Source of the DNA: Alphaproteobacteria bacterium
GTDB taxonomy: Bacteria; Pseudomonadota; Alphaproteobacteria; UBA9219
NCBI GenBank assembly: GCA_028708035.1
Contig: JAQVZU010000001.1
Location: forward strand, 3,275-67,274
Length of the DNA stretch: 64,000 bases
Direction: 5' to 3'
A program made the translations under genes and the position numbers. Below the pieces are notes generated by a model, which was not told the DNA's origin, did not search any database, and saw only the letters and a program-made list of their open reading frames with translations. Shown here in pieces: positions 4,058 through 38,893 of this stretch; the first letter of the stretch is position 1, and every line of letters begins with the position of its first letter.

Positions 4058-4683
4058 AGCCTGAAGCGCTCGCGAACGGCGTTTTCAAGAGCCGCCGTTA
4101 CTGCGCTCTGGCCCATTGAGGCGTCGATGATGCGGAAGCGAGAGTCATATTTCCTTGCGAGCGTTAAATAAGCCTCGCGAAGCTTTTCGTGGAAGTCGCT
4201 TTTCTTCTGCTGGTAGCGGTCGTCATGTCCGCCCCGGCTCGCCATGCGCGCGAGGCCGACATTCACGGGGAGATCGAGAAGAAGCGTCAAGTCGGGCTCA
4301 AAGCCGGGGGCAATGAGATCATAGCTTTTGTCCACCTTATCGAGTCCAAGGCCAAGGCCGATCCCCTGATAGGCGCGTGTCGAATCCACAAAGCGGTCAG
4401 AGACAACCCATGCGCCTCGCGCAAGCGCGGGGAAAACCGTTTTGACAAGGTGCTCGCGCCGGGCCGCCATGATAAGGAATATCTCGGTGATCGGGTCCCA
4501 GTAGCCTTCCTTTTTGTCAAGCCAGACGTCCCGCAGAACCTCCGCCGACGGTGCGCCGCCGACTTCGCGGGTCTGCACCACGTCAAGCCCTTCGTTGCGG
4601 AGGAAGTTCGCGAGCAGCGTGGTTTGAGTCGATTTTCCCGCGCCTTCTCCGCCTTCCAGCGTTATGAACTTCCCGCGGCTCAT
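4054..4683 (-). CDS. tmk: thymidylate kinase
   Basis: N-terminal FITLEGGEGAGKST P-loop, DRF motif, length 209 aa. Confidence 0.9.
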   Translation of the reverse strand: MSRGKFITLEGGEGAGKSTQTTLLANFLRNEGLDVVQTREVGGAPSAEVLRDVWLDKKEGYWDPITEIFLIMAARREHLVKTVFPALARGAWVVSDRFVDSTRAYQGIGLGLGLDKVDKSYDLIAPGFEPDLTLLLDLPVNVGLARMASRGGHDDRYQQKKSDFHEKLREAYLTLARKYDSRFRIIDASMGQSAVTAALENAVRERFRL

Positions 4684-4688
4684 GCGCG

Positions 4689-5861
4689 CTACGCCTTTCC
4701 GGAAATCAGCAGGCCAAGCCGTTGGAAAACACGCGAGAAAAAGCCGATTTCCTCGACGTCGCTTTGCGCCACAAGTGGGACCGTCTTCGTTTCCATTCCC
4801 GGTGCGACGATGACAAGCTTGCCGACGGCGTCGCCTTTTTTCACCGGGGCCGGGATCGGCTGGTTAAAGGTGACCGTCGCTTTCAGGCCGCTCCTTGCCG
4901 CGCGGGGAAGCGTGACGACGGCGTTTTGAGAGGCGACGATTTGGACGTTCGAGGCTTGGCCGAGCCACACCGCAGGGTTCGCAAGGACGTCGCCTTCCTT
5001 GACAACGGGATAAAGGCCGAATTCGCGATAGCCATAGTCGATGACCTTGGCCGATTCGTCCGCGCGGGCTTGCATATCCTTCATGCCATTAAGGACAAGA
5101 ATCATGCGCCGCCCGTCGCGCACGCATGAAGCCGTAAGGCCAAAGCCGCCGATTTCGGTGTGACCCGTTTTAAGGCCATCCACGTTCATGTTGCGGTAGA
5201 GCAGGGGATTGCGATTGCCCTGTTCGATGTTGTTGTACTTGAAGGTGGTCTCGGAGAAATAATGATAATACTCGGGAAAGTCGCGCTGGATTGCCATTGC
5301 AAGGACCGCGAGGTCGTGCGCTGTTGAGTAGTGCTGCGGATCGGGAAGCCCCGTGGCGTTCATGAAATGGCTGTTGTTCATGCCCAGCTTCTTCGCTTCG
5401 ACGTTCATCATATCGGCGAAGGCGGATTCTGAGCCCGAGGCCAGCCCTTCGGCCAAGACCACGGCTGCATCGTTGCCGGATTGGACAATGACGCCCCGGA
5501 CGAGGTCTTCGACTTTGACCCGGTCGCCCGTGTTGACGAACATGCGCGAGCCCTCCTGCTTCCACGCTTTTTCGCTGACTGGAAGCGCGTCTTCCATAGT
5601 GATCTTGCCATTCCGGAGCGCGTCGAAAACGACGTACATCGTCATGATCTTGCTCATCGACGAAGTCGGCATCTCCGTGTTGGCGTCTTTTTCGTAAAGA
5701 ACCGTTCCGGTAGCGGCGTCAATCAAAATGGCTTGCTTGGCCTCGACGTCCAGTGCGCTTTGCGCGCGGGCAACGGGGATTCCGAGAAAATACAATGCAC
5801 ATGCAGCAACAAGCCGAAGCTTCAATTTTTCCTCCAAGTCAGTCCACAACCGTCCGGGCAC
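4689..5861 (-). CDS. D-alanyl-D-alanine carboxypeptidase (PBP5/6 family, S11 peptidase)
   Basis: Signal peptide. SxxK active site (SMSKIMT), SGN motif (QSGND), KTG motif (LKTGHT), C-terminal beta-sandwich domain. Confidence 0.85.
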   Translation of the reverse strand: MPGRLWTDLEEKLKLRLVAACALYFLGIPVARAQSALDVEAKQAILIDAATGTVLYEKDANTEMPTSSMSKIMTMYVVFDALRNGKITMEDALPVSEKAWKQEGSRMFVNTGDRVKVEDLVRGVIVQSGNDAAVVLAEGLASGSESAFADMMNVEAKKLGMNNSHFMNATGLPDPQHYSTAHDLAVLAMAIQRDFPEYYHYFSETTFKYNNIEQGNRNPLLYRNMNVDGLKTGHTEIGGFGLTASCVRDGRRMILVLNGMKDMQARADESAKVIDYGYREFGLYPVVKEGDVLANPAVWLGQASNVQIVASQNAVVTLPRAARSGLKATVTFNQPIPAPVKKGDAVGKLVIVAPGMETKTVPLVAQSDVEEIGFFSRVFQRLGLLISGKA

Positions 5862-6759
5862 CGCTGATCCCAGCCGTTTTCATTTTAGACAACAATGCGT
5901 CGGCTTGCGGAACATCGGCAATAGGGCCTAGCCGAACGCGGTAAAATTTCATGCCGTTTACAAGAGCTGTCGAAACGGACGCCGCGCCGTATTTTGAAAG
6001 CTTTTGCTGAAGGCGCTGGGCATTTTCGGGAACTGAAAAAGCGCCTGCCTGCACATAAATCTGGGTCTTTCCGGTGACGGGCAACTGGACGGCGTAAGGA
6101 AGAGGCTTCGTCTGTATAAGTTGGCGGCGTGTTTCTTCCGTTGACCGCATCGGCTTGAGCGTTTGCGTTTCCACTGGGGCTGCGACCAAAGACGGCGTCG
6201 CCGAGGTTTCGGCGGAGGCCAATTGTACGGGCGGCGTTTCGGGTGTCTCAAGGGGCGTGCCATAGCGGCGCATGGCATCGGCAATAGCTTTGCTTTCATC
6301 GGCAAGAACTTGAACGCGGACTTTGGCCGTGCCTGCGTTCTCAAATCCCAAAAGGTTCGCTGCGCGTTGCGATACATCAATGATCCGCGCGCCAGAGAAC
6401 GGGCCGCGGTCATTAATGCGGACAACGATGGATTTCCCATTTTCAAGATTTGTCACGCGCGCGAGGCTGGGGAGAGGCAGGGTTTTGTGCGCGGCGGTCA
6501 GCTCATCCTTGTTGTAGATTTCGCCGTTCGCGGTCATTTGCTCGTGGAAATCAGCCCCATACCAAGAGGCGATGCCCGATTCGTCATAGTTGTAGTCTTC
6601 CTTTGGATAATACCACCGATTGTTTATTTGATAAGGCTGGCCCACTTTATAATAGCCGCCACCACCTCCTCCTGTAGGCGTGCGGCTTGTTCCGCACGCG
6701 GCGAGCGCGATACATAACGTAAGAGGCGTTACTGCTTTGAGAAAACGGTAAGGAGGCAT
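5839..6759 (-). CDS. rlpA: septal ring lytic transglycosylase RlpA (lipoprotein with DPBB domain and C-terminal SPOR domain)
   Basis: Lipobox LAACG. ASWYG...HG..TANGE...AAH DPBB signature. C-terminal SPOR-like repeat. Conserved rlpA-dacC-tmk-holB order. Confidence 0.8.
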   Translation of the reverse strand: MPPYRFLKAVTPLTLCIALAACGTSRTPTGGGGGGYYKVGQPYQINNRWYYPKEDYNYDESGIASWYGADFHEQMTANGEIYNKDELTAAHKTLPLPSLARVTNLENGKSIVVRINDRGPFSGARIIDVSQRAANLLGFENAGTAKVRVQVLADESKAIADAMRRYGTPLETPETPPVQLASAETSATPSLVAAPVETQTLKPMRSTEETRRQLIQTKPLPYAVQLPVTGKTQIYVQAGAFSVPENAQRLQQKLSKYGAASVSTALVNGMKFYRVRLGPIADVPQADALLSKMKTAGISGARTVVD

Positions 6760-7210
6760 CCGAATCGACTGCTTTGTTAAGTGCGACGGACGCTAACACA
6801 AATTGGCCGGGGGAGTCTATCGGGAGCGGAATATGCCCCACGGCACAAAAGTCAGGTTAACGAAGTTTTTGCGTTGAGAAGCGCCGTGCTTTTGCCTCAT
6901 CACCAAAGCGGCGGTTTGACAGGAAAAAGCCGCGCGAGATGTTGCCTTTACAAAGGATCAGCAAGGAGAGCAACGTCGTGGATAGATCTTGTGCCATGGC
7001 TCGACTCTGTTATGCCTTCACATCATAGGGCTTTTGTTTCTCCAAGAAAGGCCTTTCTACAAACACTTAAGTGGCACAGGGGGGGCCGGATTTACCAAAG
7101 GACTTGTTATGACAACGAGAGAAGAGGTTGAATGAGCTATTGGGGCGGTAATTACGCGATTTAACGATGTCGAGGTAGCTCTTCGACATTCTTGAGGGGC
7201 TTTTGGGGGA

Positions 7211-7779
7211 TCAAAGGGGCGCCGTTAGTCTAGCTTTCCATATAGGGGATTGAGTTTCTTCTTTGTCATCAAAGCAAACCGAAAAACCAACAATCTCGGC
7301 ATTCTTTTTATTTAACTCTGCCGCGATATCCTCATTGAGAATCATGAAGAGCTGAATCATCAAGTTATGAGCTTTTTCCGTAAGGTGCTGCAGATCCTCA
7401 AGCCTTTCCTTCTGGTAAATTGGTCTTAATTTCTTTCGAGATATATGCCTGCTTGATATTGTTTCATCTCCTATCATCCACAAAGAATGTGCAATTCGAT
7501 TGCGGTTTTCTCCAAGTGATAAACATTCATTGAAAAAGCAGGCGATACTTTCCTTCTTTGATGCGTTTTTTGTGAAAGGAGTTCTTTTGCAATTTTGCAA
7601 AGCAGGGAGAAATCATAAGAACCAATGACAATATCAGAAATTTTCTGCTCCAAATTTAAGGCAGTAGACAGCTCCTGTCTGATCATAAACTCAAGTTGGG
7701 AAAACTTGTAGAAGAATGCGCCGATAAGGAAAAATGTCCCGTTTGTCCGCTGCGAAATATGAATGTTTGTTTTGTCCAT
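7211..7779 (-). pseudogene. HEPN-motif (Rx4H: RNRIAH) defence-like protein, apparently split by a frameshift into two overlapping ORFs (101 aa + 129 aa)
   Basis: Two minus-strand ORFs overlap by ~126 nt in different frames inside the AT-rich island. The downstream one carries ENRNRIAHSLW matching the HEPN Rx4-6H nuclease motif. A combined product of ~190 aa would fit a single HEPN protein. Confidence 0.35.
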
Positions 7780-8373
7780 TTCTTGCTTCCCTTCGTGTGT
7801 GAGGGGGATCTTTTTTATGTAGAGACCACACCAGTTATATCTAAGTGCGATTTCTTAAGGGTTCTAGATAACCTCTGCCTGCCACACGAAATACAACCAC
7901 AACACCTAACCTGTTGACTTAAAAGTGCCGTACCGAGTCAACAGCTACCATAACTTTTAGAGAGTTTTTGGCCTATATCGCAATCCCATGGGACGGGATC
8001 GAAGAAATCGAGGTCAACAGCTTTTCATAGAACGTGTTGAAGCTATTGCGACTTTTCATCGCATCCCAAAATCATATATGAGTTGTAATTGTAAAAAGCG
8101 TGGCGGAGGGATGCCTGATGGAAAACCTTGGCATCTGTTTGAATGTCCTGCAATCGTGGATTTGCGCCGAAAAATATATGCGGAATTCTATTCGGAAAGT
8201 GATTGGCTTCAGTTGGACAGCGTTGGAAGCCCTTTTTTATCCGAGCGGATCAGCGGGTGCAAATGTATGGCCGACGGGCCTGTTCTCTTGTTGTCAGCTA
8301 TCACGTGTCGGAGGGAACGCGTGCGTATTGGAAAATAGCATCGCTCGCGCTGTAACCTGGCCTAGTATTTGGG

Positions 8374-8607
8374 CTACGTACAGAGCGCTTCAGCGGAATA
8401 ACGAGAGCAGCAGCTGGGGCAAACGGGAATTGTTTCAAGTTCTTTGCGAGCATTTGTGTGTTCTCGGTCGCTAATCCAACCGGTAGCAATTCCCGCAGCT
8501 GTCAAAAAACCAGCGAGTATTGGCTTCCCGGCAGACCAAGCAACTGCTGCACCGCCAAAAGCGGCACCAGAGATTGCTGCGAGCGACACATCACAAAATA
8601 AATTCAT
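8374..8607 (-). CDS. small glycine-zipper membrane protein (GxxxG-rich, 2TM-like)
   Basis: A GC-rich islet inside the AT-rich island. The ORF from internal Met MNLFCDVSLAAISGAAFGGAAVAWSAGKPILAGFLTAAGIATGW has tandem GxxxG/AxxxG zippers. Confidence 0.3.
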   Translation of the reverse strand: MNLFCDVSLAAISGAAFGGAAVAWSAGKPILAGFLTAAGIATGWISDREHTNARKELETIPVCPSCCSRYSAEALCT

Positions 8608-9233
8608 CTTCACTAAGTCCCAAGCGGACGGTCGGGACGAAGCATCTGGCGATCTCATAGCAAAAACCTCTTCAAAAATATGTTCGAATTATAATTCTAA
8701 AACCCATTGGATTGTATCCGAAATTTTCATGAGGAGAAAGTCATATGAATACTTTTAGAAACTATTCTCAGAGCGGCGAAATCAATCATAGTTAATGTGC
8801 AGAGAAATTGCCATTAACGTATCATCGATCCTTTTATGACAGATTTTTTGTCTGTTTCGGTGTCAGCGGGCTGGATGTCGCCATCTTCAGTCTTTTGCAT
8901 GTAGGCGGTCTTGGACGGCAATGGAAATCGGAGAGGATACCTGGGAAAGTGAGGGGCGGAAGGCAAGATAAAGCACATTCACATGAACGCGCTAAGTGTT
9001 TGGTCTGCACGTCCTTTTTTGAGTTTTTCATGTGCATGCTACTCATTCATGGAGGCTATTCGCTGCAACTCGTTGATTTCTCACCGTGCGGTAGGAGCAT
9101 TACAAACAAAGACAAAAAACGACACCAACCGTAGGGTTATAGGTGGAAAGCGGCAAAACAAATTCAGGGCGCATGCTCGCAAAAATTTCTGCGGCGATCA
9201 ATCGGACGAGCGGCGGACAAGAATGTTCCTTAT

Positions 9234-9281
9234 CAGAGGCGGCGCGGCTTTGGACTCTTGCGGTCCCGCCGCGCCGCCTCT
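9234..9281. repeat. perfect 14-bp inverted repeat (cagaggcggcgcgg / ccgcgccgcctctg) with 20-nt spacer
   Basis: Read directly from the sequence, ~110 nt downstream of the integrase stop. Candidate terminator or recombination/regulatory hairpin. Confidence 0.5.
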
Positions 9282-9326
9282 GACCTATCGGCATCGACTA
9301 TTGCCAAAAGCGCTGCGCGCAAGTTG

Positions 9327-9349
9327 AGAGTGTGGTGCCACCACACTCT
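9327..9349. repeat. perfect 10-bp palindrome agagtgtggt-gcc-accacactct
   Basis: Read directly from the sequence, 40 nt beyond the 3' end of the integrase gene; no T-run follows, so it is more likely a protein-binding site than an intrinsic terminator. Confidence 0.45.
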
Positions 9350-9388
9350 GGCGTCCCTAAAGGTCGAGGCGCTATTCGTGTAGCGATG

Positions 9389-10624
9389 TTACTTTCGGGC
9401 TTCGCCGGATTTTGAAAAATTGCCTTTCACGACTTTCTTTTCGGCGTCCACAAGAACGCTGTCCAAGTAGTCAGCGTAATCCTGCATCATCTTTTTCCGT
9501 TCGAGCAAGTATTCGGCGCGGTTATAGGCCGAGCGGATTTTGTCGTCGCTTTCGTGCGCCAGTTGCCTTTCGATAACATCCGGCTTGTATCCCTGCTCGT
9601 TCAGGATCGTCGAGGCCAGGGCGCGGAAGCCGTGGCCCGTCATGCGTCCGTGGTAGCCCATGCGGCGCAACGCGACGAGAACAGCGCCGTTGCTGATATG
9701 CTTTAGGCTTCCCCGCTGGGCGTGGAAAATATGCTCTTTCGTTCCTGTTTGGGCGTGTAGCTCTTTCAATATGTTCAAGGCTTGGCGTGAAAGGGGCACG
9801 ACATGAGGACGGCCCATTTTCATGCGTTCGGCGGGAATGTTCCATTCGGCCCTGTCGAAGTCTATTTCCGTCCACTGAGCGCCAATAAGTTCGCCGGTGC
9901 GAACGAAAGTCAGCGCCAGCAGTTGCATAGCCGCCCTTGTCAGGAATGTCGCATTTTTGCATTCGCGCATGTCCAGCAGGAGCTGCGGAAGTTCGCGGGG
10001 GTGAATACAGGAATGATGTTTTTGCTCGGCGGCGGGCAGTAAATCGCGCATATCCGCCGCCGGATTGAATTGGCACTGGCCGCGCTGCGCTGCATATCGG
10101 AAAGTCTGGCTGATAAGCTGTTTCATACGCTTGGCGGTCTCAATCGTGCCGCGTTCGCCGATCTTCTCAACCACCCGCGCCACGTCGGGGATGGTGATCT
10201 CCGTTATCGGCAGCGCGCCTATCATCGGAAAAACAAGCGCTTCAAGGCGCGAAAGGCATTGCGTGTGGTACTTGGCATTGAGCCGCCCGGCCCTGAGTTC
10301 GAGCATATGCCGGGCAATTTTTTCGAATGTGTTTTGGCCCTCAACCATTCGGCGCAGCTTTTCGGCTTTTCTTTCGCGGGCAGGATGCTTTCCGGCCTCA
10401 ACCAGAGCCTTTGTCTCGTCGCGTTTCTTGCGGGCTTGTTCCAAAGAGACCTTCGGAAACTTGCCCAGAGACATCATCTGCGGCTTGCCATTGAAGGTAT
10501 AGCGGAGCCGCCACAGCTTGCTGCCAGTTGGTGCTATCTCAAGGCAAAGCCCCTCTGAGCCGGCCACACGGTATATTTTGGCCCTCGGCTTGAGGTGTTC
10601 GATCTCTAAAACGGTGAGAGACAT
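9389..10624 (-). CDS. int: tyrosine-type site-specific integrase (P4-like, N-terminal DUF4102 arm-binding domain)
   Basis: N-terminus LKPRAKIYRVAGSEGLCLEIAPTGSKLWRLRY is typical of P4-family integrases. C-terminal catalytic residues R...HGFRA...R...Y are present. The 3' end of tRNA-Ser is next to the gene start. Confidence 0.85.
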   Translation of the reverse strand: MSLTVLEIEHLKPRAKIYRVAGSEGLCLEIAPTGSKLWRLRYTFNGKPQMMSLGKFPKVSLEQARKKRDETKALVEAGKHPARERKAEKLRRMVEGQNTFEKIARHMLELRAGRLNAKYHTQCLSRLEALVFPMIGALPITEITIPDVARVVEKIGERGTIETAKRMKQLISQTFRYAAQRGQCQFNPAADMRDLLPAAEQKHHSCIHPRELPQLLLDMRECKNATFLTRAAMQLLALTFVRTGELIGAQWTEIDFDRAEWNIPAERMKMGRPHVVPLSRQALNILKELHAQTGTKEHIFHAQRGSLKHISNGAVLVALRRMGYHGRMTGHGFRALASTILNEQGYKPDVIERQLAHESDDKIRSAYNRAEYLLERKKMMQDYADYLDSVLVDAEKKVVKGNFSKSGEARK

Positions 10625-10641
10625 CGAAAGTCTCGTTCCAA

Positions 10642-10680
10642 AAATCTACTCAGAAATATACGCTTTTCGTGAGTAGATTT
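10642..10680. repeat. 11-bp inverted repeat aaatctactca / tgagtagattt with 17-nt AT-rich spacer in the int-tRNA intergenic region
   Basis: Read directly from the sequence just upstream of the integrase start codon; candidate operator or integrase promoter element. Confidence 0.4.
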
Positions 10681-10779
10681 CAATAAATTTCTTAAGATGT
10701 CCTCGGACGTCAAAATTGAAGAACATAGCCTTAAATAACACTTAAACAAGACTTCTATAGAAACTCTCGGACTTAAAAC

Positions 10780-10872
10780 TGGCGGAAGGGATGGGATTCG
10801 AACCCACGATACGGCTTATGACCGTATACCCGCTTTCCAGGCGAGCGCCTTCAACCACTCGGCCACCCTTCC
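10780..10872 (-). tRNA. tRNA-Ser (anticodon GGA), long variable arm, CCA encoded
   Basis: The reverse complement gives GGAAGGGTGGCCGAGTGGTTGAAGGCGCTCGCCTGGAAAGCGGG...GGTTCGAATCCCATCCCTTCCGCCA. 7-bp acceptor stem GGAAGGG/CCCTTCC, anticodon loop CTGGAAA, T-loop GGTTCGAATCC. Confidence 0.85.
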
Positions 10873-17899: not shown

Positions 17900-18424
17900 A
17901 TGAAAATATGCAAAACGATACTCAAGGTATCTATCGCAACTTTGCTCTTGGCTGGATGTAGCGAATGGAACAGGTTATTTTCTGATTCGCAAACAGCACC
18001 CGGGGCGCCCATAGCGACTCAACCCGACATCGTTTCGATTAAATTAGCGCAAGCCGCCGACAAAGCGGCCAAGGCTTTAGATACAATAGCAAACATCGAA
18101 CAGCACAAAAATCCTGCCGTTCCTCCTCTACAAAAGGACTTGTCCAGCGCGTCTCCCGCGATGATGCAGCCGGTAACGGTGCGTTGGTCGGGTCCCATCG
18201 AACAGATTACCCGCGTGCTCGCCGAAAAGGCAGGCATGCGTTTTCGCTCGAGCGGTCGCACACCCGGCATTCCGCTGGTCGTGAATGTCGATGCCTATCA
18301 GCAGCCGATCCTTTACATACTGCGGGATGTCGGCTTGCAATCAGGATCTCGGGCCGATTTGTTGGTTGACCAAAACGAGGGTGTTGTCGAGGTGCGGTAT
18401 GCTGCTGCTGACCAATCCCGGTAA
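17900..18424 (+). CDS. dotD: type IVB secretion system outer-membrane lipoprotein DotD
   Basis: Lipobox LLLAGCS, 174 aa. C-terminal block VRWSGPIEQITRVLAEKAGMRFR...VVEVRYA is colinear with the WSGPIEELT...VELRY region of Legionella DotD as recalled from memory. Followed by dotC-like and dotB genes in the Legionella order. Confidence 0.65.
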   Translation: MKICKTILKVSIATLLLAGCSEWNRLFSDSQTAPGAPIATQPDIVSIKLAQAADKAAKALDTIANIEQHKNPAVPPLQKDLSSASPAMMQPVTVRWSGPIEQITRVLAEKAGMRFRSSGRTPGIPLVVNVDAYQQPILYILRDVGLQSGSRADLLVDQNEGVVEVRYAAADQSR

Positions 18425-28409: not shown

Positions 28410-30823
28410 GCGACCACGTTGACAATGCGGTTAGGGACCACGATGATCTTTTTGGGCTCTTTATCGTTCAGCGCTCTTTTTACGCCTTCTTCTGACAAAG
28501 CCGCCGCTTCGACATCCTTGTTGGGCGCGTCGCGCGGCACCGTGATGGTGGCGCGAAGCTTGCCGTTGACCTGAACGGCGATGGTGACCGAGTTTTCGAC
28601 CAACAGCGCCGGGTCGGCTTTTGGCCAAGCCGCAGTGGCAAGGATTTCCTTATGGCCAAGCGCTTCCCACATTTCTTCCGCAATATGCGGAGCGAACGGC
28701 GCGAGAAGCTTCAGGAAAACCTCCCAAGCGTCCTGCGGAATCTCCTTCAGTTCGCCAAACGTATTGGTGAGCGTCATCAAAGCGGCGATGGCCGTGTTGA
28801 ACTTCATCGTCTCGATGCGCTCACTAACGTTGCGGATCGTGCGGTGCGTGGCGCGAAGAATATCTCCTTCGGCTTTATCCGGCCTCACCTTTTCGCTGAA
28901 TGTCCAAAGACGCGAGAGAAACCGCCACATGCCCATAAGGCCGTTGGTTGACCACGGAATGGCCTGATCGAACGGCCCCATGAACATCTCATAAAGGCGC
29001 AACGTGTCCGCACCATAGGTTTTCACCACCTCGTCCGGATTAACGACGTTGCCGCGCGACTTCGACATTTTCTCGTTGTTTTCACCCAGGATAAGGCCGT
29101 GCGACGTGCGCTTGGCATACGGCTCCGGCGTCGGAGCCACGCCGATGTCATAAAGAAACTTGTGCCAAAAGCGCGAATACAACAGGTGGAGAACCGTGTG
29201 CTCCATGCCGCCGTTGTACCAATCGACGGGCGTCCAAAACTCGAGAGCCTTGCGGCTTGCAAGTTCCTTGTCGTTATGGGGATCGCAATAACGCAGGAAA
29301 TACCATGACGACCCGGCCCATTGAGGCATCGTGTCGGTCTCGCGCTTGGCGGACCCGCCGCATTGAGGGCATTGGGTGTTGACCCAGTCGGTCATAAGAG
29401 ACAAGGGCGACTCGCCGGTTTCGCTGGTCTGGTAGTGCTCGACATCGGGAAGCTTCAGCGGAAGCTCGCTTTCGGGGAGAGGGACCCAACCGCATTTCGG
29501 GCACTCGACCATCGGAATAGGTTCTCCCCAATAACGTTGGCGCGAGAAAACCCAGTCGCGAAGCTTATATTTGATCGACGCTTTGCCATAGTTTTCGCGT
29601 TCGACTGTCCCAATCATCTTGTCGATGGCTTGCGGAGGTGTGAGCCCATTAAGATGGCCGGAATTCACCATGCGGGCGTCTTTGCAATCGATGTCGGTAA
29701 AGGCTTCCTTGGAAATGTCTCCGCCCGTGATGACTTCGATCATCGGAAGGCCGAATTTCTTTGCAAACCTCCAGTCGCGTTCGTCGTGTGCAGGCACTGC
29801 CATGATCGCGCCGGTGCCATAAGTCGCAAGCACGTAATCGGCAATCCAGACGGGAACGGGCTTCTTCGTAGCAGGATTAACGGCGAAAACGCCTTCGAGC
29901 GCGACGCCAGAGACTTCCTTCGCGCCCTCGGTGCGGTCAAAGTCGGATTTGCGGGCCGTGGCTTCAATATAAGCTTTAACCGCATTGGGGTTCTTCGCAT
30001 GCGAAAGAAGTTCGGTAACCAAGGGATGCTCGGGAGCCAAGACCATGTACGTCACGCCGAAAAGCGTGTCAGGTCGCGTCGTGAAGACTTTCAGTGCGCG
30101 GTCGCCAAGGACGGGAAGCGTAAAATCAATTTCGGCGCCTGTGGATTTGCCGATCCAGTTGCGCTGCTGGGCCTTGATCTTTTCGAGATAATCGACCGTG
30201 TCGAGATCGGAAAGAAGGCGCTCAGCATACGCGGTTATCTTAAGCATCCACTGGCTGCGGCGGCGCTGGACAACAGCTCCACCGCAACGCTCGCATTCGC
30301 CGCCTACAACTTCCTCATTTGCCAAGCCGACTTTGCACGAAGGGCACCAGTTGACCGGCATATTGGTTTTATAGGGAAGGCCTTTCTTCCAAAGCTGAAG
30401 GAATATCCACTGCGTCCATTTATAGTAATCGGGAGCGGTGGTATCGACTTCGCGAGACCAGTCAAACGAAAACCCAAGGCTTTTAAGCTGGCGGCGAAAG
30501 TTCGCGATATTTTTCTGCGTCACGGACTTGGGATGCTGGTGCGTTTTGATTGCGAAGTTTTCGGTAGGCAGCCCAAAAGCATCCCAGCCGATGGGGTAAA
30601 GAACATTGAATCCTTCCATGCGGCGCTTGCGGGCGACGATGTCCAGAGCCGTATAGCTGCGCGGATGGCCGACGTGCAGTCCTTCGCCAGAGGGATAGGG
30701 AAACTCGATCAACGCGTAAAACTTGGGGCGCGATGAATCCTCGGTTGCCTTAAATGATTCTTTTTCAGCCCAGATCTTCTGCCATTTGGCTTCCGTCGTC
30801 TGGTGGTTATATCGCTCGCTCAT
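28406..30823 (-). CDS. leuS: leucine--tRNA ligase
   Basis: 805 aa; HIGH motif (HVGHP), KMSKS motif (KMSKSRGN), editing CP1 domain and zinc-binding Cys clusters. Confidence 0.95.
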
Positions 30824-31094
30824 TTGCCTTTGTCCTTGGAAATCCGGTATCAGACGATAAAAACCTTTTTAATGCCTCATATCAAGAGGGGTATTGACAG
30901 AATCTTCGATTGCGTGGCCAGAAGCATGGATCTCGATGTATTGATGCCTTTTTAAAGGCAACAAGGGGCGTTGCATGGAAAACCTGCTTGGTATCTAAAA
31001 GTTCGATGCTCAAGAGAAGATTGCGCAAGTATTTCTAAAGCCCTAGATTTTAAAATAGATAACATTTTATTAACTTTTATTTATTCAATTTCGA

Positions 31095-31835
31095 ATGTCA
31101 TTGTCGCATTATAGAACCTCCGCCAGTTTATTGCTTTATTTTGCTGAACACGGATTTTCTAAAACGCTCGAAGAACAAACAAAATCTCAAGTATATGTTG
31201 TTATGGGCGCAATGTATTGGATTGATCAGTGTTTGGACAACAAAACCGGCGATGAAAAGACACAGACGCAAACAAAAATCCTCGACTATCTGGGGGAAAA
31301 AACGACTGGCATCCTCATTGAGGACGAACCGGAAACATGCCGAGCGCTTCGGATTCTGAGAAATTTTTTAAAAGAACATCCTGCTGCGCAAAAAAGAGCG
31401 TTCGTCGATAAAGTTCGGGATGTTTTCGAAAATGGAGAAAAGGTTTCCTCTGCGACAAAACTCGCCGATTTTATAAGCGCACGAAGACAAGAGGGCATTG
31501 CGACTGCCGACATTGTGCTGACCTTAGCCGACGAGCTTGGCTCAAACAAAAGGTTCTCAACATTTCTCCGGCTAACGACTGTTGCTGGCAATTTTATTGA
31601 CACCTTTCTGGATGCACGTTCGGACGCCAAAGATTCACGAATATCCATCAATCCGACCCGGCTCCAGTTCGGCATCGCAAAGGAAGCCCTAACTGGGCTT
31701 AGAAGCGTATATGCCTTTTATCCGGGCAAAATCGCCAAAGACGCAGGAAGAGGCTACTTTTTATATAAAACAGGAGGCATTCCTAAATATCCTCCGGGCC
31801 TGACAAACGCTAATAACACATTCATTCCAAGCTAA
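31095..31835 (+). CDS. hypothetical cytoplasmic protein (246 aa) in an AT-rich insertion; candidate translocated effector
   Basis: The gene and its 270-nt AT-rich upstream region have markedly lower GC than the flanking leuS/ftsW. No signal peptide and no recognisable domain. Confidence 0.5.
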   Translation: MSLSHYRTSASLLLYFAEHGFSKTLEEQTKSQVYVVMGAMYWIDQCLDNKTGDEKTQTQTKILDYLGEKTTGILIEDEPETCRALRILRNFLKEHPAAQKRAFVDKVRDVFENGEKVSSATKLADFISARRQEGIATADIVLTLADELGSNKRFSTFLRLTTVAGNFIDTFLDARSDAKDSRISINPTRLQFGIAKEALTGLRSVYAFYPGKIAKDAGRGYFLYKTGGIPKYPPGLTNANNTFIPS

Positions 31836-31857: not shown

Positions 31858-33015
31858 TCAATCCTCGTCGCCGAGGCCAAAGCGCTTGCGAGTCAGGCCC
31901 AAAAGCATTCCCATGCCGATAGATAAAGCAAACAATGATGAGCCGCCGTAGGAGATAAAAGGAAGCGTCATGCCCTTGGCGGGGAGAAGCCGCATGGTGG
32001 ACCCCAGATTGATGACCGCCTGGAGGCCGAATTCGATCAAAAGCCCGCTGACCGCGAGCATTATGAAGAGGCTGTTTTCGTTCTGAATGCGGCGGAGTCC
32101 CCGAAGCACGATGAAGGCGAACAGGCCTATAATCAACAAACACCAGAGAAGCCCAAGTTCTTCGCCCGCAACAGCAAAGACAAAATCAGCATGGGCATCG
32201 GGAATCGACATTTTCACAGTGCCCTCGCCCGGGCCTGTGCCGAAAAGGCCCCCGTTTGCGAAGGCGTCGAGCGCCTTGTCAACTTGATACGTATCGCCTG
32301 TCCGGCTTAAGAATTTATCGATGCGCGCGGAAAAATGAGGAAAAATGTAATAAGCCGCGATCATGGCGGCAACGCCTAACACGCCGGAGATACCCACAAA
32401 GAGTGCCGAAAGGCCCGCCAAAAAAAACTGACCGAACCAGATGACAGAAACCAAAAAGACCATCCCGATGTCGGGCTGCATTAGCAGAAAAAACGCGATC
32501 AAAATATAGAGCGCGATGTTGACGCTAAGCGCAGGGAAGCCCCGGCGTTCGCACTGGCGGGTAAATAGCCAAGCGGCGGTGACCGCGAACAACGGCTTTA
32601 TGAACTCGGAAGCCTGAATTGAAAAAAGGCCCAGGATTCTGATCCAGCGGACCGCACCTTTGATTTCCGCGCCGATAAACGGCGTTGCGATAAGAAGAGG
32701 AACAAAAATCGCGAGTCCTGCCGCGGAGAAAAGGCGGATTCTCTTGGGTGACAAAAGAGAAACGGCGAACATGACGCCGATAGCGGGCAAAAGCATGGCA
32801 AGGTGGCGTTCGACGAAATAAAGGTTGCTCCAGCCATGCTTGACGGCCACGGCAGGGGTTGATGCTTGAATAAGGAGAATCCCGAACCCCATGATAATGA
32901 CCAGCGCGGCCAAGGCCCAGCGATCAACAGTCCACCACCACCTGCCAAGGACTGAACGGTCGGATCGCGTAAGCGCGGGCATCAGGACTTCCTTATCGTG
33001 AGTCAGAAGCATCAC
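31858..33015 (-). CDS. ftsW: peptidoglycan glycosyltransferase FtsW (SEDS family)
   Basis: 385 aa, ~10 TM helices, SEDS motifs, located in the dcw cluster. Confidence 0.85.
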   Translation of the reverse strand: MMLLTHDKEVLMPALTRSDRSVLGRWWWTVDRWALAALVIIMGFGILLIQASTPAVAVKHGWSNLYFVERHLAMLLPAIGVMFAVSLLSPKRIRLFSAAGLAIFVPLLIATPFIGAEIKGAVRWIRILGLFSIQASEFIKPLFAVTAAWLFTRQCERRGFPALSVNIALYILIAFFLLMQPDIGMVFLVSVIWFGQFFLAGLSALFVGISGVLGVAAMIAAYYIFPHFSARIDKFLSRTGDTYQVDKALDAFANGGLFGTGPGEGTVKMSIPDAHADFVFAVAGEELGLLWCLLIIGLFAFIVLRGLRRIQNENSLFIMLAVSGLLIEFGLQAVINLGSTMRLLPAKGMTLPFISYGGSSLFALSIGMGMLLGLTRKRFGLGDED

Positions 33016-33075
33016 TATACACTTAATTGGGCGAACGGCTGAAAGTATCCCTTATAGCTCGATTTATCAAAGGAC

Positions 33076-34038
33076 TTATCCCCAAAGCGCGGCGGTGGGA
33101 GGATAGAGAACACCATCGGCATAAGCCAAAGCGTTCGGGCGGTCGCAGGCGAGAAGAAGAGCCCCGTCAAGATCCGCAAACTTGGCTTCTTGCGCGACCA
33201 AGAACGCGGGCGCAATGGAAAGCGACGTGCAAACCATGCACCCCACCATCAAGCCAAAACCCGATTGTTTCGCTGCGGAAGCCAGCGCAAGGGCTTCGGT
33301 AAGGCCGCCGGTTTTGTCCAGCTTGACGTTGATGAAATCGTATTTCCCTTTAAGCCCACTTAAAGAATCCCTGTCGAAAACGCTTTCATCCGCGCAAATG
33401 GGGATAAGGCGAGAAACCAACGCCAAAGCTGCGTCGTTTGAGGCAGGAAGAGGCTGTTCGACAAGCTCGACACCGGCAGACGCGCAAGCAGAGATGTTTT
33501 CGGCTAGGTTTTCCGGTGTCCATCCCTCGTTGGCGTCCGCGATCAAGCGCGTTTTGGGAGCAGCGTTGCGGATTTGCCTGAGACGTTCGGGATCGCCTTC
33601 CCTGCCGAGCTTGATTTTAAGCAGCGGACGTGCGGCATGGGTGCGCGCAGCGTCGGCCATTTTTTCGGGCGTGTCCAGAGAGAGCGTGTAAGAAACCGTA
33701 AGAGGTTTCAGTTTTTCGATTCCCGCAAGAAGGTGCGCCGAAAGGCCGTGTTGCTTGGCCTTCAGATCCCAAAGAGCGCAATCGATGGCGTTTCGCGCGG
33801 ATTTAAGCGGAATTTCGCAAAGCGTTTCGGGAACGCCGGTCCACGATTGAATGGCAGCGAGCGCGGTTTCGGGCGTTTCCTCATAACGGGGGTAGGGAAC
33901 GGCCTCGCCTCGCCCCCAATGCGTGCCGTCCGAAACTTCGACGACGACCACGACCGCCTCGGTCTTGGACCCCCGGCTAATTGTAAACGACCCCGCAATG
34001 GGCCAGCGTTCGATTTGGGCTTTAACGGTCAGTGTCAT
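33076..34038 (-). CDS. L-Ala-D/L-Glu (dipeptide) epimerase, enolase superfamily (MLE subgroup)
   Basis: Capping domain plus TIM barrel with KIKLG (KxK), DANEGW, E and D metal ligands, and a second catalytic Lys (KLDKTG). The ATG overlaps the mraY stop as ATGA, indicating translational coupling. Confidence 0.75.
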
Positions 34039-35120
34039 CTTAGCTTCAGCGTTGAGAGGCCGATCAGTCCCAGAATGCATGCGATGATCCAAAAGCGAAT
34101 GACCACGGTAGGTTCGGACCAGCCCAGTTTTTCAAAATGGTGATGGATGGGCGCCATGCGGAAAACCCGCTTGCCGGTGAGCTTATATGAGGCCACCTGA
34201 ATGACGACTGAAAGAGTTTCGGCAACGAAGAGTCCTCCGATGATCGCCAAAACCAGCTCGTGCTTGACGATCACGGAAATCGTGCCAAGCGCGCCGCCTA
34301 ATGCCAGAGATCCCGTGTCACCCATGAAGACCTGCGCAGGAGGCGCATTGAACCAAAGGAAGCCGAGGCATGCGCCGACAAGCGCGCCGCAAAAGACCGC
34401 GAGTTCGCCCGCGCCGGGAACATGATGTATTTGGAGATAATTCGCAAAAACGAAGTTTCCGGCAAGGTACGATATGAGAATAAAGCATAAAGCCACAATG
34501 ATAACGGGAACTGTGGCCAAGCCGTCCAGGCCGTCCGTGAGATTGACCGCATTGCCCGCGCCGACGATCACAAACACCGCGAACGGGATGAAGAGAGGGC
34601 CAAGCGGAATCATGTAGTCCTTGACGAACGGGATCGCCAACATATTGGCCGACGATGGCGAGACGGCGGTAGAAATAGCATAGACGGCGAGCGCGGAAAT
34701 AATCACCTGTATGGCGAGGCGGATCTTTCCCGGGACGCCGTTGGACGACCGCTTGGTGAGTTTTTTGTAATCATCGAAAAAGCCTACCAATCCAAAGCCG
34801 AGGGTGACGAACATGACCGCCCATGTATATAGGTTCGAGAGGTCCATCCACAGAACCGTACTGATGCCTGTCGAAACCAAAATCATCAGGCCTCCCATGG
34901 TGGGCGTGCCTTTTTTCTTGAGGTGCGTTTCGGGGCCGTCTGTGCGGATTGGTTGTCCCTCGCCTTGTTTCGACTTGAGCCATCGAATAATTGATGGCCC
35001 CGCGAGAAAACAGATAATCAGCGACGTAGCCATGGCTCCGCCCGTCCGGAACGTGATGTAGCGGAACAGGTTGAAAAGAATGAAATCCCGTGCGTATGGC
35101 GCAAGTAAATGAAACAGCAT
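34035..35120 (-). CDS. mraY: phospho-N-acetylmuramoyl-pentapeptide transferase
   Basis: 361 aa, 10 TM helices, conserved MraY Asp-Asp motifs and HHH motif (APIHHHFE). Confidence 0.95.
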
Positions 35121-35128
35121 GACTATCC

Positions 35129-36556
35129 TTAAGCGTTGATCTTTTTTCTGGAGGGATCGGCGGAAAGGCCGCGAAGGGCATCGAGGATTTCTTGCAGGGC
35201 AGTCCTTTGGCCCTTGACGACGACAATATCGTTTGCGTTAACATAGTTGGCGACCATGGCGGCAAGTTGATCGCCGTCGGGATCGTAACCGCCGCGAAGA
35301 TCGGGCGGAAGCGCATCGTACAAATAGCGCGTTGCATCTCCGAAGCAGAAGACGAGGTCGATACGGCCCAAAACGATTTCAGGGACCAGCGCCAGATGCA
35401 AATCGGGGGACATCAAACCGAGGTCCGGCATTTCCCCCAGAATAAGAATCCGGCGGCCTCTATGCCGAGGGATGTGTTGCGACAGGACCTGAATCGCAGC
35501 GCGAACGGATACCGGACTTGAATTCGAGGACTCATCGATCACCATCAGCGGGCCTTCAGGCAGGTCCAGAATATCGGCATCCCCCCTGCCTTCGCCCGGT
35601 TCGTAAAGCGAGAGGGCGGAAGCGGGCTCTTCGATCTTGCCGGACGCCGCAAATGCGGCGAGCAACGCCGCGAGCGCGTTTTTGACGAGGTGCTTGCCGG
35701 GAGCCGGAATGGTATAGGAAAGCTGGCGGCCCGCGACAACAACGTTCGCGAAGCTGTTCTCTTCCGTCAAAACGCATTTGCGCAAAAACGCATCGGCGTG
35801 GCCGATTTCGGAAAATGTCACAGTTTTCTTGAAGCCCTTGCTTTTTGCCGCTGCCGAAAGACGCGCAAATTGCGGAATGTCTTTGTTGACAATGAAAACG
35901 CCGTCCTTCTTGAGTCCTTCCAGAATTTCCGCCTTGGCGTCCGCAATGGCGTCCAAAGATGCAAAATTCGCGAGATGGACCGCTTCGACTCCCGTGATGA
36001 CAGCGACGTCCGGGGCGGCGAGGCGCGCGAGTGGAGAGAGTTCGCCTGCATGACTCATGCCCAGTTCGAAAACGCCAAAATCCGCATCGGGCGGTAAGTT
36101 GGCGAGCGATACCGGAAGACCATATTTGTTGTTGTAGCTGCTTGGGCAGGCGAAAGTTTTTCCCACGGCGGAAAGGCAGAGGCGCAGCATTTCCTTCGTT
36201 GTGGTCTTGCCGATAGAACCCGTGATCGCGATGATCTTGCCGCGCGCGCGCGCACGCGCGGCGCGGGCAAGGTCTTGAAGGGCCTCGAAGGTGTCTTGTA
36301 CGAAAAGAAGCGGAACGCCCGGTTTCAGGTTAAGCGGTTGGCGCGAAACAATTGCGGCGGCGGCGCCAGAGGCAAAAGCCGAGGCTACAAATTCGTGGCC
36401 ATCGTTGTTAGGGCCCTGAAGCGCGATAAATAAATCGCCTTTGCGTGCCGTCCGGCTGTCGATAGAGACTCCTTGCGCCGTCCATGCCTGCTCATGCAAA
36501 ACTGCGCCTCTTACGGCACGAACAACGTCTTCGGCATGCCAAAGAGTTTCGCTCAT
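35129..36556 (-). CDS. murF: UDP-N-acetylmuramoyl-tripeptide--D-alanyl-D-alanine ligase
   Basis: Mur ligase P-loop [11 protein letters not shown], central and C-terminal Mur ligase domains; 4-nt overlap with murE. Confidence 0.9.
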
Positions 36557-37998
36557 TGACCGATGACCTTTCGCGCTTCTTCGGCGTCGTCAAAGGGAAG
36601 GACTTTGTCGCGAACGATCTGGCCGGGCTCGTGTCCCTTGCCAGCGATGATAACTGCGTCTTTTGTGTCGAGCTTGCCGATGCCCTCACGGATCGCCGCG
36701 CCGCGATCGCCGATCTCCCGGACGTTTGTTTTGTCAACGCAACCCGCGAGTATTTCGGCGCGAATGGTCCCGGCATCTTCATAGCGGGGATTATCGTCGG
36801 TTACGATAACCCAATCTGCCAAACGTTGAGCAATGTCTCCCATCATGGGACGTTTGCCCTTGTCGCGGTTGCCGCCGCATCCGAAAATAACGCCCAGCTT
36901 TCCACCCGAAGCCGTGACGTGCGAGCGCATGGCGCGCAGGACGTTTTCAAGAGCATCGGGCTTGTGCGCATAATCGACGTAAACTTCTCCGCCGTTTTTC
37001 GAAAGGCCAATAAACTGCAGGCGGCCCGGAACCACGGACACTTTGCCGATGGCTTGAATTGTTTTTTCGGCATCTTCGCCGCCGCCGATCACCAAACCCG
37101 CAGCGCAGAGCGCATTCCATGCCTGAAAGCTGCCCATCACGGGCAATGCGACATCCATCTTTTTTCCGAAAACTTCGAGCGAAAGGATCTGGCTCCCGTC
37201 ATCAAGACGCGCGTCGAGAAGGCGCAGGTCCTTAGCTTTTTTGCCGTAGGAAATGATGCGAAGGCCGCGCGCCTTGGCCGTCTCGGACAGCGGCCTGAAT
37301 TCAGGAACGTCGGCGTTAAGGACAGCAGCTCCGTCCGCAGGAAGGAGATTCGAAAAGAGGCCTCGCTTTGCTTCGAAATAGGCTTCCATGGTCTCATGAT
37401 AATCGAGATGATCGCGCGACAGATTGGTGAATGCGCCCGCCTTGAATTTTACGCAGTCGAGACGTTTGAGTTCGATGCCGAAGTTTGACGTTTCGATAGC
37501 GACATGTGTGACGCCTTTGTTTGCGCATTCGTCAAGCAGACGATGCGTTGTGATTGCGTCAGGCGTCGTAAGCGCGCCGTAGTGTGTGCCCCAGGCATCA
37601 ACGACCCCAAACGTTCCGATGCTGGCGGAGGAATGGCCCAAGGCTTGCGCGATTTCGCGCGTGAATTGCGCAGTAGAGGTCTTACCGCTTGTACCTGTAA
37701 CGGCAAGAATTGTTTGAGGCTGTTTCGGGTAAAAAGTCGAGGCCAGCACGCAGGTTTCGTGCCGCACGTCGGAGGTTTTGAAAGTGGTAACCGGCGTGTC
37801 GGGAGTATCTTCGGGAACCAGAATGGCGACGGCGCCTTTCTTGATGGCGTCGTCAATGAATTCCCGGCCATCCTGTTTAAGGCCCGGCGTCGCAATGAAC
37901 AGAAACCCCGGCTGAACCTTGCGTGAATCTTCGGTAACTCCCTTGATATCGACATCGGCGCCAGTAAAGGGAAGTTTTGTCAATTTCGAAAGGAACAT
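36553..37998 (-). CDS. murE: UDP-N-acetylmuramoyl-L-alanyl-D-glutamate--2,6-diaminopimelate ligase
   Basis: P-loop GTSGKTSTAQFT, DNPR motif (meso-DAP specificity), 481 aa. Confidence 0.9.
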   Translation of the reverse strand: MFLSKLTKLPFTGADVDIKGVTEDSRKVQPGFLFIATPGLKQDGREFIDDAIKKGAVAILVPEDTPDTPVTTFKTSDVRHETCVLASTFYPKQPQTILAVTGTSGKTSTAQFTREIAQALGHSSASIGTFGVVDAWGTHYGALTTPDAITTHRLLDECANKGVTHVAIETSNFGIELKRLDCVKFKAGAFTNLSRDHLDYHETMEAYFEAKRGLFSNLLPADGAAVLNADVPEFRPLSETAKARGLRIISYGKKAKDLRLLDARLDDGSQILSLEVFGKKMDVALPVMGSFQAWNALCAAGLVIGGGEDAEKTIQAIGKVSVVPGRLQFIGLSKNGGEVYVDYAHKPDALENVLRAMRSHVTASGGKLGVIFGCGGNRDKGKRPMMGDIAQRLADWVIVTDDNPRYEDAGTIRAEILAGCVDKTNVREIGDRGAAIREGIGKLDTKDAVIIAGKGHEPGQIVRDKVLPFDDAEEARKVIGQ

Positions 37999-38143: not shown

Positions 38144-38893
38144 ATGGACATCCGTCATACCCATCGCATTTTTGTTTCTCAACGGCTTGAGGAAGGGGCC
38201 TCGGTGCGGGTCGAGGAGGATCTCGCGCATTATTTGCTGCATGTGCTGCGTCTCGGCAATGGCGATGCGCTTCGGCTGTTTAACGGGAAGGACGGAGAAT
38301 TCAAGGGAAGCGTCGAACGAGCGGGAAAAAACAAGGCGCTTGTGCATATTGGCGCGCAGACCAGGCCGCAAGAGGCTGGGGTCGATGTTTGGTTGTGTTG
38401 CGCACCGATCAAGAAGGCTCATTTTGACTACATGATTGAAAAAGCCACTGAACTTGGCGTTTCAGAAATTCAGCCGATTCTGACCCAAAGGACCCAAGTC
38501 CGTGAGGTTAACGGAGATCGCGCGTGGACCCTATGCAAAGAAGCCGCCGAGCAATCAGACAGGCTAGACATTCCCGCAGTAGGAAATCCGGTGAAATTAG
38601 ACGATCTTATAGGGGTTTTTCCGAAAGACAGGGCGCTGATTGTATGCGCTGAATGGGGCGAAGCCGCGCCCATTCATAAGGCGCTGCATTCTGAAGCAAT
38701 CCAAAAATTCGAGAAGGCCGCCATCGTGACGGGTCCGGAAGGCGGTTTTGCGGCGGAAGAGCTGGAGCTGTTACGGAAAGCGCCGAATACGTTTTTCGTC
38801 CGTCTCGGGCCGCGGATTTTACGCGCAGACACCGCCGCCATTGCGGCGCTGGCATGCTGGCAAGCGATCAAAGGGGACTGGGGGAAGGCATGA
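38144..38893 (+). CDS. rsmE: 16S rRNA (uracil1498-N3)-methyltransferase
   Basis: PUA-like N-terminal domain followed by a SPOUT knot domain (IVTGPEGGF); 249 aa. Confidence 0.8.
   Translation: MDIRHTHRIFVSQRLEEGASVRVEEDLAHYLLHVLRLGNGDALRLFNGKDGEFKGSVERAGKNKALVHIGAQTRPQEAGVDVWLCCAPIKKAHFDYMIEKATELGVSEIQPILTQRTQVREVNGDRAWTLCKEAAEQSDRLDIPAVGNPVKLDDLIGVFPKDRALIVCAEWGEAAPIHKALHSEAIQKFEKAAIVTGPEGGFAAEELELLRKAPNTFFVRLGPRILRADTAAIAALACWQAIKGDWGKA

Follow-up and report, generated by a model that had tools for sequence, protein, structure and literature searches.

What does a gene for an enolase-superfamily epimerase do inside a peptidoglycan-precursor operon, between mraY and ftsW? This question is posed by a 64,000-nucleotide stretch (hereafter the window) of a metagenome-assembled genome (MAG) named 'Alphaproteobacteria bacterium', in which murE, murF, mraY, the epimerase gene and ftsW follow one another on the minus strand; the epimerase is protein MDD4615529.1, encoded on a 76.6-kb contig. 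In relatives, the orthologous gene lies immediately upstream of murL and of a ligase gene bearing the MurD2 signature, i.e., the two genes of an alternative peptidoglycan-precursor pathway known from Xanthomonas oryzae (PMC8788868). We hold, with slightly better than even confidence, that the epimerase is a recycling partner of the rare MurD2/MurL route and not a replacement for that route.

The epimerase and its linkage to murL and murD2

The epimerase consists of a capping domain and a C-terminal barrel (PF02746, E=1.2e-10; PF13378, E=1.3e-26). It matches enolase-superfamily models only, leaving the MurL families (MurL_N/MurL_epimerase_C and NF041275) unmatched. Its best-scoring curated family is DgcA, the N-acetyl-D-glutamate (N-acetyl-D-Glu) racemase (NF042940), at 424.8 bits (cut-off 400), the lowest score of the set, in which the relatives reach 434-476 bits; with the YcjG model (NF011708) it obtains 297.3 bits, under the equivalog cut-off of 343. 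The closest solved structures, both matched over the full length, are 4gfi, an enolase-family protein of Agrobacterium (E=1e-89), and YcjG itself (1jpd, E=6e-76).

Residues were compared in 25 homologues drawn from three genomic contexts (window-type, MurL-linked and DgcN-linked). R22, K141/K143, D168, E194, D217, K239/K242 and D289-x-D291 are invariant in all of them, and the KxK motif (K141-I-K143), D168, E194, D217 and K239/K242 align with their counterparts in YcjG and 4gfi. Because the family matches agree and no catalytic or ligand residue varies, the window enzyme is, as predicted from its sequence, an intact epimerase of N-acylated glutamate; family scores, structure matches and invariant residues alike point to a YcjG/DgcA-type enzyme and so bear out the dipeptide-epimerase assignment made in an earlier note on this DNA, which had been written from the letters alone. 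In dipeptide epimerases, a DxD motif after the last barrel strand binds the free amino group of the dipeptide. The window enzyme has this motif as D289-L-D291, and it is equally invariant in the DgcN-linked enzymes; being invariant in all three context groups, it does not separate YcjG from DgcA. Positions conserved in the MurL-linked and DgcN-linked enzymes show no systematic substitution in the window-type enzymes, which therefore give no sign of a new substrate, and a new function for them was rejected on the basis of this three-group comparison.

We compared 62 genome loci encoding epimerase homologues, plus close relatives from metagenome assemblies (loci are given by L numbers). Of the 62, only L002, a 5.5-kb MAG contig with the nearest homologue (75% identical), has the epimerase beside ftsW. 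In Rhizobiales, Granulosicoccaceae and other groups, the homologues (at most 60% identity) lie away from cell-wall genes, some of them next to ABC-transporter genes, and in 10 outgroup loci DgcN is encoded directly upstream (that of L007 passes the NF041892 cut-off with 530 bits). DgcN (DUF1611) is present neither in the window nor in any dcw-linked or MurL-linked locus compared (dcw, division and cell wall).

Among the closer metagenome relatives, whose epimerases are 57-69% identical to that of the window, the epimerase gene stands directly upstream of murL and a murD2-type ligase gene in five distinct genomes (L064, L065, L068, L070 and L155). This epimerase-murL-murD2 unit occurs in three contexts: within the dcw cluster in L064, L065/L066 and L068/L069, where the order is murE-murF-mraY, a small open reading frame (ORF) or a GNAT acetyltransferase gene, then epimerase-murL-ligase-ftsW; after an unrelated ORF in L070; and between sodB and marR in L155. 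The epimerase-murL gaps usually measure 5-10 nt, or the genes overlap, with gaps of up to 60 nt. The murL products of the dcw-linked loci match the NF041275 equivalog over its full length with 486-489 bits, and equal-sized contigs in the match lists of epimerase and MurL suggest about five additional co-located pairs. The tie to the MurD2/MurL pathway, which the earlier note had raised as an analogy, is thus seen in the gene order of the relatives.

The same loci held several smaller features. A conserved ORF of 118-119 aa follows mraY in L064 (7768-8124), L065 (9625-9981) and L161 (8409-8768), not in the window; an N-terminal segment of its product is hydrophobic, and it matches no family. 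We considered it as a decayed acetyltransferase and rejected this, given that segment and its lack of similarity to the GNAT protein of L068. The MurL of L064 (9148-10445) lies in two frames of 374 aa and 57 aa, found as two tblastn segments, reflecting either a frameshift or an assembly error. In L068, genes for a Gp49/HigB-like toxin and a helix-turn-helix antitoxin are inserted between murE and murF (6150-6772).

As for the ligases, MurD2, which adds L-Glu, has Glu, Arg, Pro and Phe in place of Asp182, Lys348, Ala414 and Leu416 of Escherichia coli MurD (PMC8788868). Of these, the Glu and Arg decide stereospecificity, and Lys319 also matters (PMC8788868). When 68 MurL-linked ligases were aligned to E. 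coli MurD, all 68 had E182, I319 and R348, and all had P414 with F or Y at 416 save two that deviate at 414/416 (one gap, one A). From this signature we conclude that the relatives add L-Glu and that its epimerisation follows on the nucleotide precursor.

With the L065 ligase as query, a counterpart for the window came up: protein P0266 (MDD4616582.1), of 435 aa, encoded on a 21.6-kb contig of an 'Alphaproteobacteria bacterium' MAG and carrying the full E-I-R-P-Y MurD2 signature. Its accession stands 1053 above that of the window epimerase. Within one annotated assembly, NCBI gives proteins consecutive numbers, and on account of this closeness P0266 is probably encoded on another contig of the window's MAG. 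A MurD2-type ligase is thus very likely to be part of the window's genome. The nearest relatives of P0266 (P0263 and P0272) apparently share contigs with the MurL proteins P0183 and P0188, as judged by equal contig sizes; we regard MurL, too, as likely to be encoded in this genome, presumably beside P0266. A canonical murD elsewhere, which the earlier note had taken, together with murI, as a mark of an ordinary recycling gene, was not found, and the MurD2-signature protein P0266, probably of the window's MAG, was found in its stead.

Two further observations concern these ligases at large. Among the best 120 MurD2 homologues (P0243-P0362), seven have Asp at the position of Asp182 (D-I-R-P-Y) and one reads C-I-V-A-F; these ligases may be shifting back towards D-Glu. 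Moreover, in NCBI MAG annotation MurL is labelled 'endonuclease domain-containing protein' or 'hypothetical protein', and MurD2-signature ligases are labelled 'UDP-N-acetylmuramoyl-L-alanine--D-glutamate ligase' (records P0126, P0135, P0154, P0121, P0243 and P0266), while part of the JGI data names both MurL and MurD2 correctly. This misannotation is systematic in these MAGs, and as a result the pathway is invisible in these NCBI records.

The window locus and its history

In the window itself, family models and Pfam scans confirmed the gene order and the truncated dcw cluster that the earlier note had described. The features are as follows:

38144-38893, plus strand: rsmE, divergent from murE (PF04452 and PF20260; synteny in relatives)
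36553-37998, minus strand: murE (NF001124, 571.9 bits, cut-off 476; three Mur ligase Pfam domains)
35129-36556, minus strand: murF, its start overlapping the end of murE (TIGR01143, 349.6 bits, cut-off 288.6)
34035-35120, minus strand: mraY (TIGR00445, 424.6 bits, cut-off 192)
34035-34038, minus strand: ATGA overlap of the epimerase start codon (34038-34036) with the mraY stop codon (34037-34035), read from the sequence
33076-34038, minus strand: enolase-superfamily epimerase, 320 aa (Pfam MR_MLE_N and MR_MLE_C)
33016-33075, minus strand: 60-nt spacer between the epimerase stop and the ftsW start, from the sequence
31858-33015, minus strand: ftsW-type SEDS gene, the last gene of the operon (PF01098, 216.7 bits)
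31095-31835, plus strand: ORF246, a low-GC orphan at the boundary (no Pfam or NCBIfam match)
28406-30823, minus strand: leuS (Pfam; synteny with L065, L067 and L161)
27903-28409, minus strand: lptE (Pfam; downstream neighbour kept in relatives)

The ftsW-type gene scores 306 bits with the ftsW model TIGR02614, below its cut-off of 337.5, vs 201 bits with that of rodA. The epimerase begins at the listed ATG rather than at an upstream TTG (34092), in agreement with the N-termini of its homologues, so that the overlap of the epimerase ATG with the mraY stop, as the earlier note had read it, stands. By this layout and overlap the gene is embedded in the precursor operon, again as that note had it; the epimerase would be transcribed with murE-murF-mraY and ftsW and translationally coupled to mraY. 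The mraY-epimerase-ftsW-ORF246-leuS order recurs, at 99.6-100% protein identity, in L001, a Logan assembly made independently from run SRR22315502, and these identical junctions argue that the arrangement is no assembly artefact. The ATGA overlap is found also in L067 and L159, the epimerases of which are 63-66% identical to that of the window; since it has been kept at this divergence, the adjacency of mraY and the epimerase is not due to chance.

A canonical dcw cluster has mraZ-rsmH-ftsL-ftsI before murE, murD between mraY and ftsW, and murG-murC-murB-ddl-ftsQAZ after ftsW. The window keeps murE-murF-mraY and ftsW, and its relatives are equally truncated. Pfam scans, which took in about 50 further ORFs, found none of mraZ, rsmH, ftsI, murG, murC, ddl, ftsQAZ or dgcN in the window. 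In the same 64 kb, phmmer found murE and murF as the only Mur-ligase paralogues, tblastn found no MurL-like sequence, and no mpaA, ldcA or ykfC-type amidase/peptidase gene accompanies the epimerase.

Comparing the locus in relatives, as the earlier note had proposed, revealed, besides the five genomes with the complete unit, a short form in which mraY-epimerase-ftsW stand together without murL and the ligase gene. The window, L067, L159 and L161 have this form, and L002 has it in part: there, two ORFs that by eye resemble CoA-transferase subunits take the upstream place of mraY, while the ftsW neighbour is kept. Long and short forms have the same flanks, with ftsK, a methyltransferase gene, an alpha/beta hydrolase gene and rsmE on one side and leuS, lptE, a peptidyl-prolyl isomerase gene, motAB and dnaK on the other, and they differ by the clean presence or absence of murL-murD2. 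Where the window has its 60-nt spacer, L064, L065 and L068 have the murL-murD2 pair (~2.7 kb). The empty slot is therefore the place of murL-murD2 in sister genomes, which speaks against the notion, implied by the earlier note, that the epimerase has replaced murD.

In a neighbour-joining tree, the dcw-linked epimerases form one clade, L155 and L070 come next, and the Rhizobiales DgcA proteins fall outside; a neighbour-joining analysis of housekeeping genes pairs the window weakly with L067. Stand-alone murL-murD2 pairs were found in two related genomes (L072 and L156). The simplest history is that the ancestor had epimerase-murL-murD2 and that murL-murD2 later left the site in some lineages.

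Beside the stand-alone pair of L156, where other genomes carry the epimerase, a divergent pair of genes (3385-5862) encodes an FAD enzyme resembling D-amino-acid dehydrogenase (NF001933, 184 bits, below the cut-off) and an alanine transaminase, an arrangement which, suggestively, could be an alternative means of D-Glu disposal. As to ORF246, its GC content is 0.447, vs 0.54-0.57 in the neighbouring genes, and that of the adjoining spacer (30824-31094) is 0.37; four relatives have at this site a gene for a tetratricopeptide-repeat protein of 490-641 aa, to which ORF246 has no similarity, and ORF246 looks like a lineage-specific replacement or insertion.

Elsewhere in the window, a PBP5-type DD-carboxypeptidase gene and a gene for an RlpA-like protein (DPBB_1 and SPOR domains) overlap by 23 nt (4689-6759, minus strand); these cell-wall remodelling genes lie ~27 kb from the truncated dcw operon. 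A tyrosine integrase gene (9389-10624) stands beside tRNA-Ser(GGA) (10780-10872); before it comes a 2.6-kb stretch with a lower GC content (~0.48) and no ORF of at least 150 aa, and the whole region (6760-10872) may be what is left of an integrated element. Type IV secretion genes at 18285-20530 and 52051-53357 encode a TraI-like protein, a T2SSE-family ATPase and a tandem pair of DotI/IcmL paralogues, which suggests a life in association with a host or prey. Since NCBI places Micavibrio in Bdellovibrionales, a label that recurs among the sister MAGs, we considered a Micavibrio affiliation; it is not established, and no conclusion here relies on it.

A candidate return arm for D-glutamate and its alternatives

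YcjG turns L-Ala-D-Glu from murein-peptide breakdown into L-Ala-L-Glu, which a dipeptidase can cleave, and DgcN-DgcA, by way of the N-acetyl derivative, make L-Glu from free D-Glu. D-Glu is a very poor substrate for MurD2, and the organisms of its pathway are reported to be without D-Glu-forming enzymes (PMC8788868). As the reuse of D-Glu then needs a flip back to the L form, we read the epimerase as forming the return arm of a D-Glu cycle that runs without a racemase. In such a cycle, the lineage would bypass glutamate racemase, with a MurD2-type ligase adding L-Glu and MurL epimerising it on the nucleotide precursor; in the window's genome, murL-murD2 would have left the mraY-ftsW slot, in which the epimerase stayed, and the murD2-type ligase gene, and by extension murL, would lie on another contig. 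D-Glu from stem peptides, whether the cell's own or acquired, would be unusable by MurD2 and, MurI being presumably absent, would not be racemised. The epimerase, as a metal-dependent, two-lysine 1,1-proton-transfer enzyme of the YcjG/DgcA family, would interconvert the D and L forms of N-acylated glutamate, its predicted substrates being L-Ala-D/L-Glu and/or N-acetyl-D/L-Glu. It would in vivo turn D-Glu, while still N-acylated, into the L form, and hydrolysis would then yield L-Glu, the substrate of MurD2.

Two relatives offer clues to the direction of this reaction. In L068, the GNAT acetyltransferase gene is translationally coupled to the epimerase and its product is a possible stand-in for DgcN, and in L161 a gene for an S33 peptidase of the prolyl-aminopeptidase family (TIGR01249, 398.7 bits) is coupled in the same way and possibly serves the dipeptide-cleaving step. 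Because these are the kind of genes expected for salvage, we favour the D-to-L direction. The dgcN-dgcA operons of the nearest outgroup homologues point the same way. The earlier note had left it open whether the enzyme makes or salvages the D-Glu-containing stem peptide; the salvage half of that proposal is the explanation we favour, and the half in which it performs the step of MurL is not supported.

Several observations weigh against the recycling reading. The acetyltransferase and the peptidase are both absent beside the epimerase in the window, and sequence cannot tell L-Ala-Glu from N-acetyl-Glu as the substrate. The Pfam scans that found neither murI nor a D-amino-acid aminotransferase gene cover the window's 64 kb only. 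The placement of P0266 in the window's MAG is drawn from accession proximity, and a MurL from this MAG is absent among the best 120 MurL homologues, a weak test in that the split MurL of L064 goes unlisted as well and the pairing of contigs fails for about a quarter of the MurD2 matches. Finally, at least 80 distant metagenome loci carry murL-murD2 (MurL 35-57% identical), and none has the epimerase nearby; in the 80 listed, the two genes are always paired, and neither mraY nor ftsW is near them in any. We conclude from these 80 loci that the partnership and the placement in the murD slot are lineage-specific and not a general need of the pathway. Other MurD2/MurL organisms must handle D-Glu reuse differently or with unlinked genes.

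This last pattern also suits a plainer explanation, in which the epimerase is an ordinary gene of D-glutamate or murein-peptide catabolism and its position between mraY and ftsW is an accident in a rearranged genome. Most homologues do lie away from cell-wall genes, in dgcN-dgcA operons or next to ABC-transporter genes, and the genomes of the lineage are strongly rearranged. However, the linkage to murL-murD2 survives in three unrelated contexts, the mraY-ftsW position and the start/stop overlap have been kept at 63-66% identity, and in L002 the epimerase stayed beside ftsW though its upstream neighbour changed. We therefore find an accident of position doubtful, albeit deserving of serious consideration.

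A biosynthetic role has far less to recommend it. The enolase-fold epimerase might replace MurL, with MurL truly absent from the short-form genomes, as the earlier note had envisaged in proposing that the MurL step is catalysed by a different fold. Consistent with this, murL is not at the site in five lineages (the window, L002, L067, L159 and L161), no MurL accession near MDD4615529 or MDD3370513 is found among the best 120 matches, a MurD2-signature ligase is probably encoded in the window's MAG, and the substrate would remain an N-acyl-glutamate. If true, it would be a second, non-homologous and ATP-independent route to the D-Glu of peptidoglycan without glutamate racemase. Yet at least five genomes have an orthologue of the epimerase alongside a true MurL, and hence the epimerase did not evolve for MurL's job; the window-type enzymes show no systematic residue change, the ligases closest to P0266 seem to be linked to MurL, and the negative evidence on MurL is weak. 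In the enolase superfamily, moreover, the capping domain closes the active site, and the known substrates are small dipeptides or N-acyl amino acids. We thus consider a replacement of MurL very unlikely, and give still less credence to the idea that the epimerase supplies free D-Glu or L-Ala-D-Glu by a reversed DgcA- or YcjG-type reaction and so bypasses glutamate racemase, e.g., by turning N-acetyl-L-Glu from arginine synthesis into N-acetyl-D-Glu and this into the D-Glu that a D-Glu-using ligase would need. In its favour, the chemistry can run both ways, the gene is part of a biosynthetic operon, and the window contains argH, showing merely that arginine metabolism exists; but the only glutamate ligase attributable to the genome bears the L-Glu (MurD2) signature, the close relatives all have MurD2-type ligases, and neither a deacetylase nor a D-Glu-specific ligase was seen.

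Returning to the recycling reading, its interest lies in a gap in the MurD2/MurL pathway. Bacteria with this pathway are thought to have no enzyme for making or interconverting free D-Glu, and the fate and reuse of the D-Glu released in turnover are not addressed in the searchable literature; our literature search found no paper mentioning a companion epimerase for murL-murD2. The epimerase-murL-murD2 unit, sometimes with a coupled acetyltransferase or aminopeptidase gene, suggests a closed chirality cycle, in which the ligase adds L-Glu, its configuration is switched to D on the precursor, and the D-Glu is built into the wall and later returned to L as a small N-acyl-glutamate.

Comparison with known systems

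YcjG of E. coli (in the MpaA-YcjG-PepD route) and YkfB of Bacillus subtilis have the same fold and the same catalytic residues as the window epimerase, and YcjG does the job proposed here, the conversion of stem-peptide D-Glu to L-Glu for hydrolysis and reuse. Unlike YcjG, the window epimerase falls under the equivalog cut-off (297 vs 343), has no adjoining mpaA, ldcA or peptidase gene and is part of a dcw operon, coupled to mraY; nor has the murL-murD2 linkage of its relatives been described for YcjG.

The DgcN-DgcA pathway was reportedly described by Yu et al. in 2023 (ISME J 17:537). A further account presents it as a pathway of D-glutamate catabolism in which DgcA is an N-acetyl-D-glutamate racemase (PMC12363236). 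The window epimerase passes the DgcA cut-off, its nearest outgroup homologues are encoded directly downstream of dgcN, and it would perform the same net chemistry, D-Glu to L-Glu without glutamate racemase. Unlike DgcA, it has no dgcN beside it; in that place, L068 has the unrelated GNAT acetyltransferase and L161 the S33 aminopeptidase.

The MurD2/MurL pathway of X. oryzae is said to have been reported by Feng et al. in 2017. As in X. oryzae, the window's relatives have a true MurL beside ligases with the E/R/P/aromatic signature. Unlike MurL, to which it is not homologous, the window enzyme belongs to the enolase superfamily; it lacks an adenylating domain, and its reaction should be reversible. 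As reviewed, MurD2/MurL occur in Xanthomonadales, Devosia, Pelagibacterium, Parvularcula and rare actinobacteria; the window's lineage is not among these, and the review mentions no companion epimerase (PMC8788868). In the 80 other murL-murD2 loci listed, the pair lies outside dcw clusters. The known range of MurD2/MurL is thus widened to an uncultured alphaproteobacterial lineage, in which the dcw cluster has the pair where murD classically stands. What is new here with respect to all three systems is the context of the epimerase, i.e., its conserved unit with murL-murD2 and its retention, coupled to mraY, in a truncated dcw operon.

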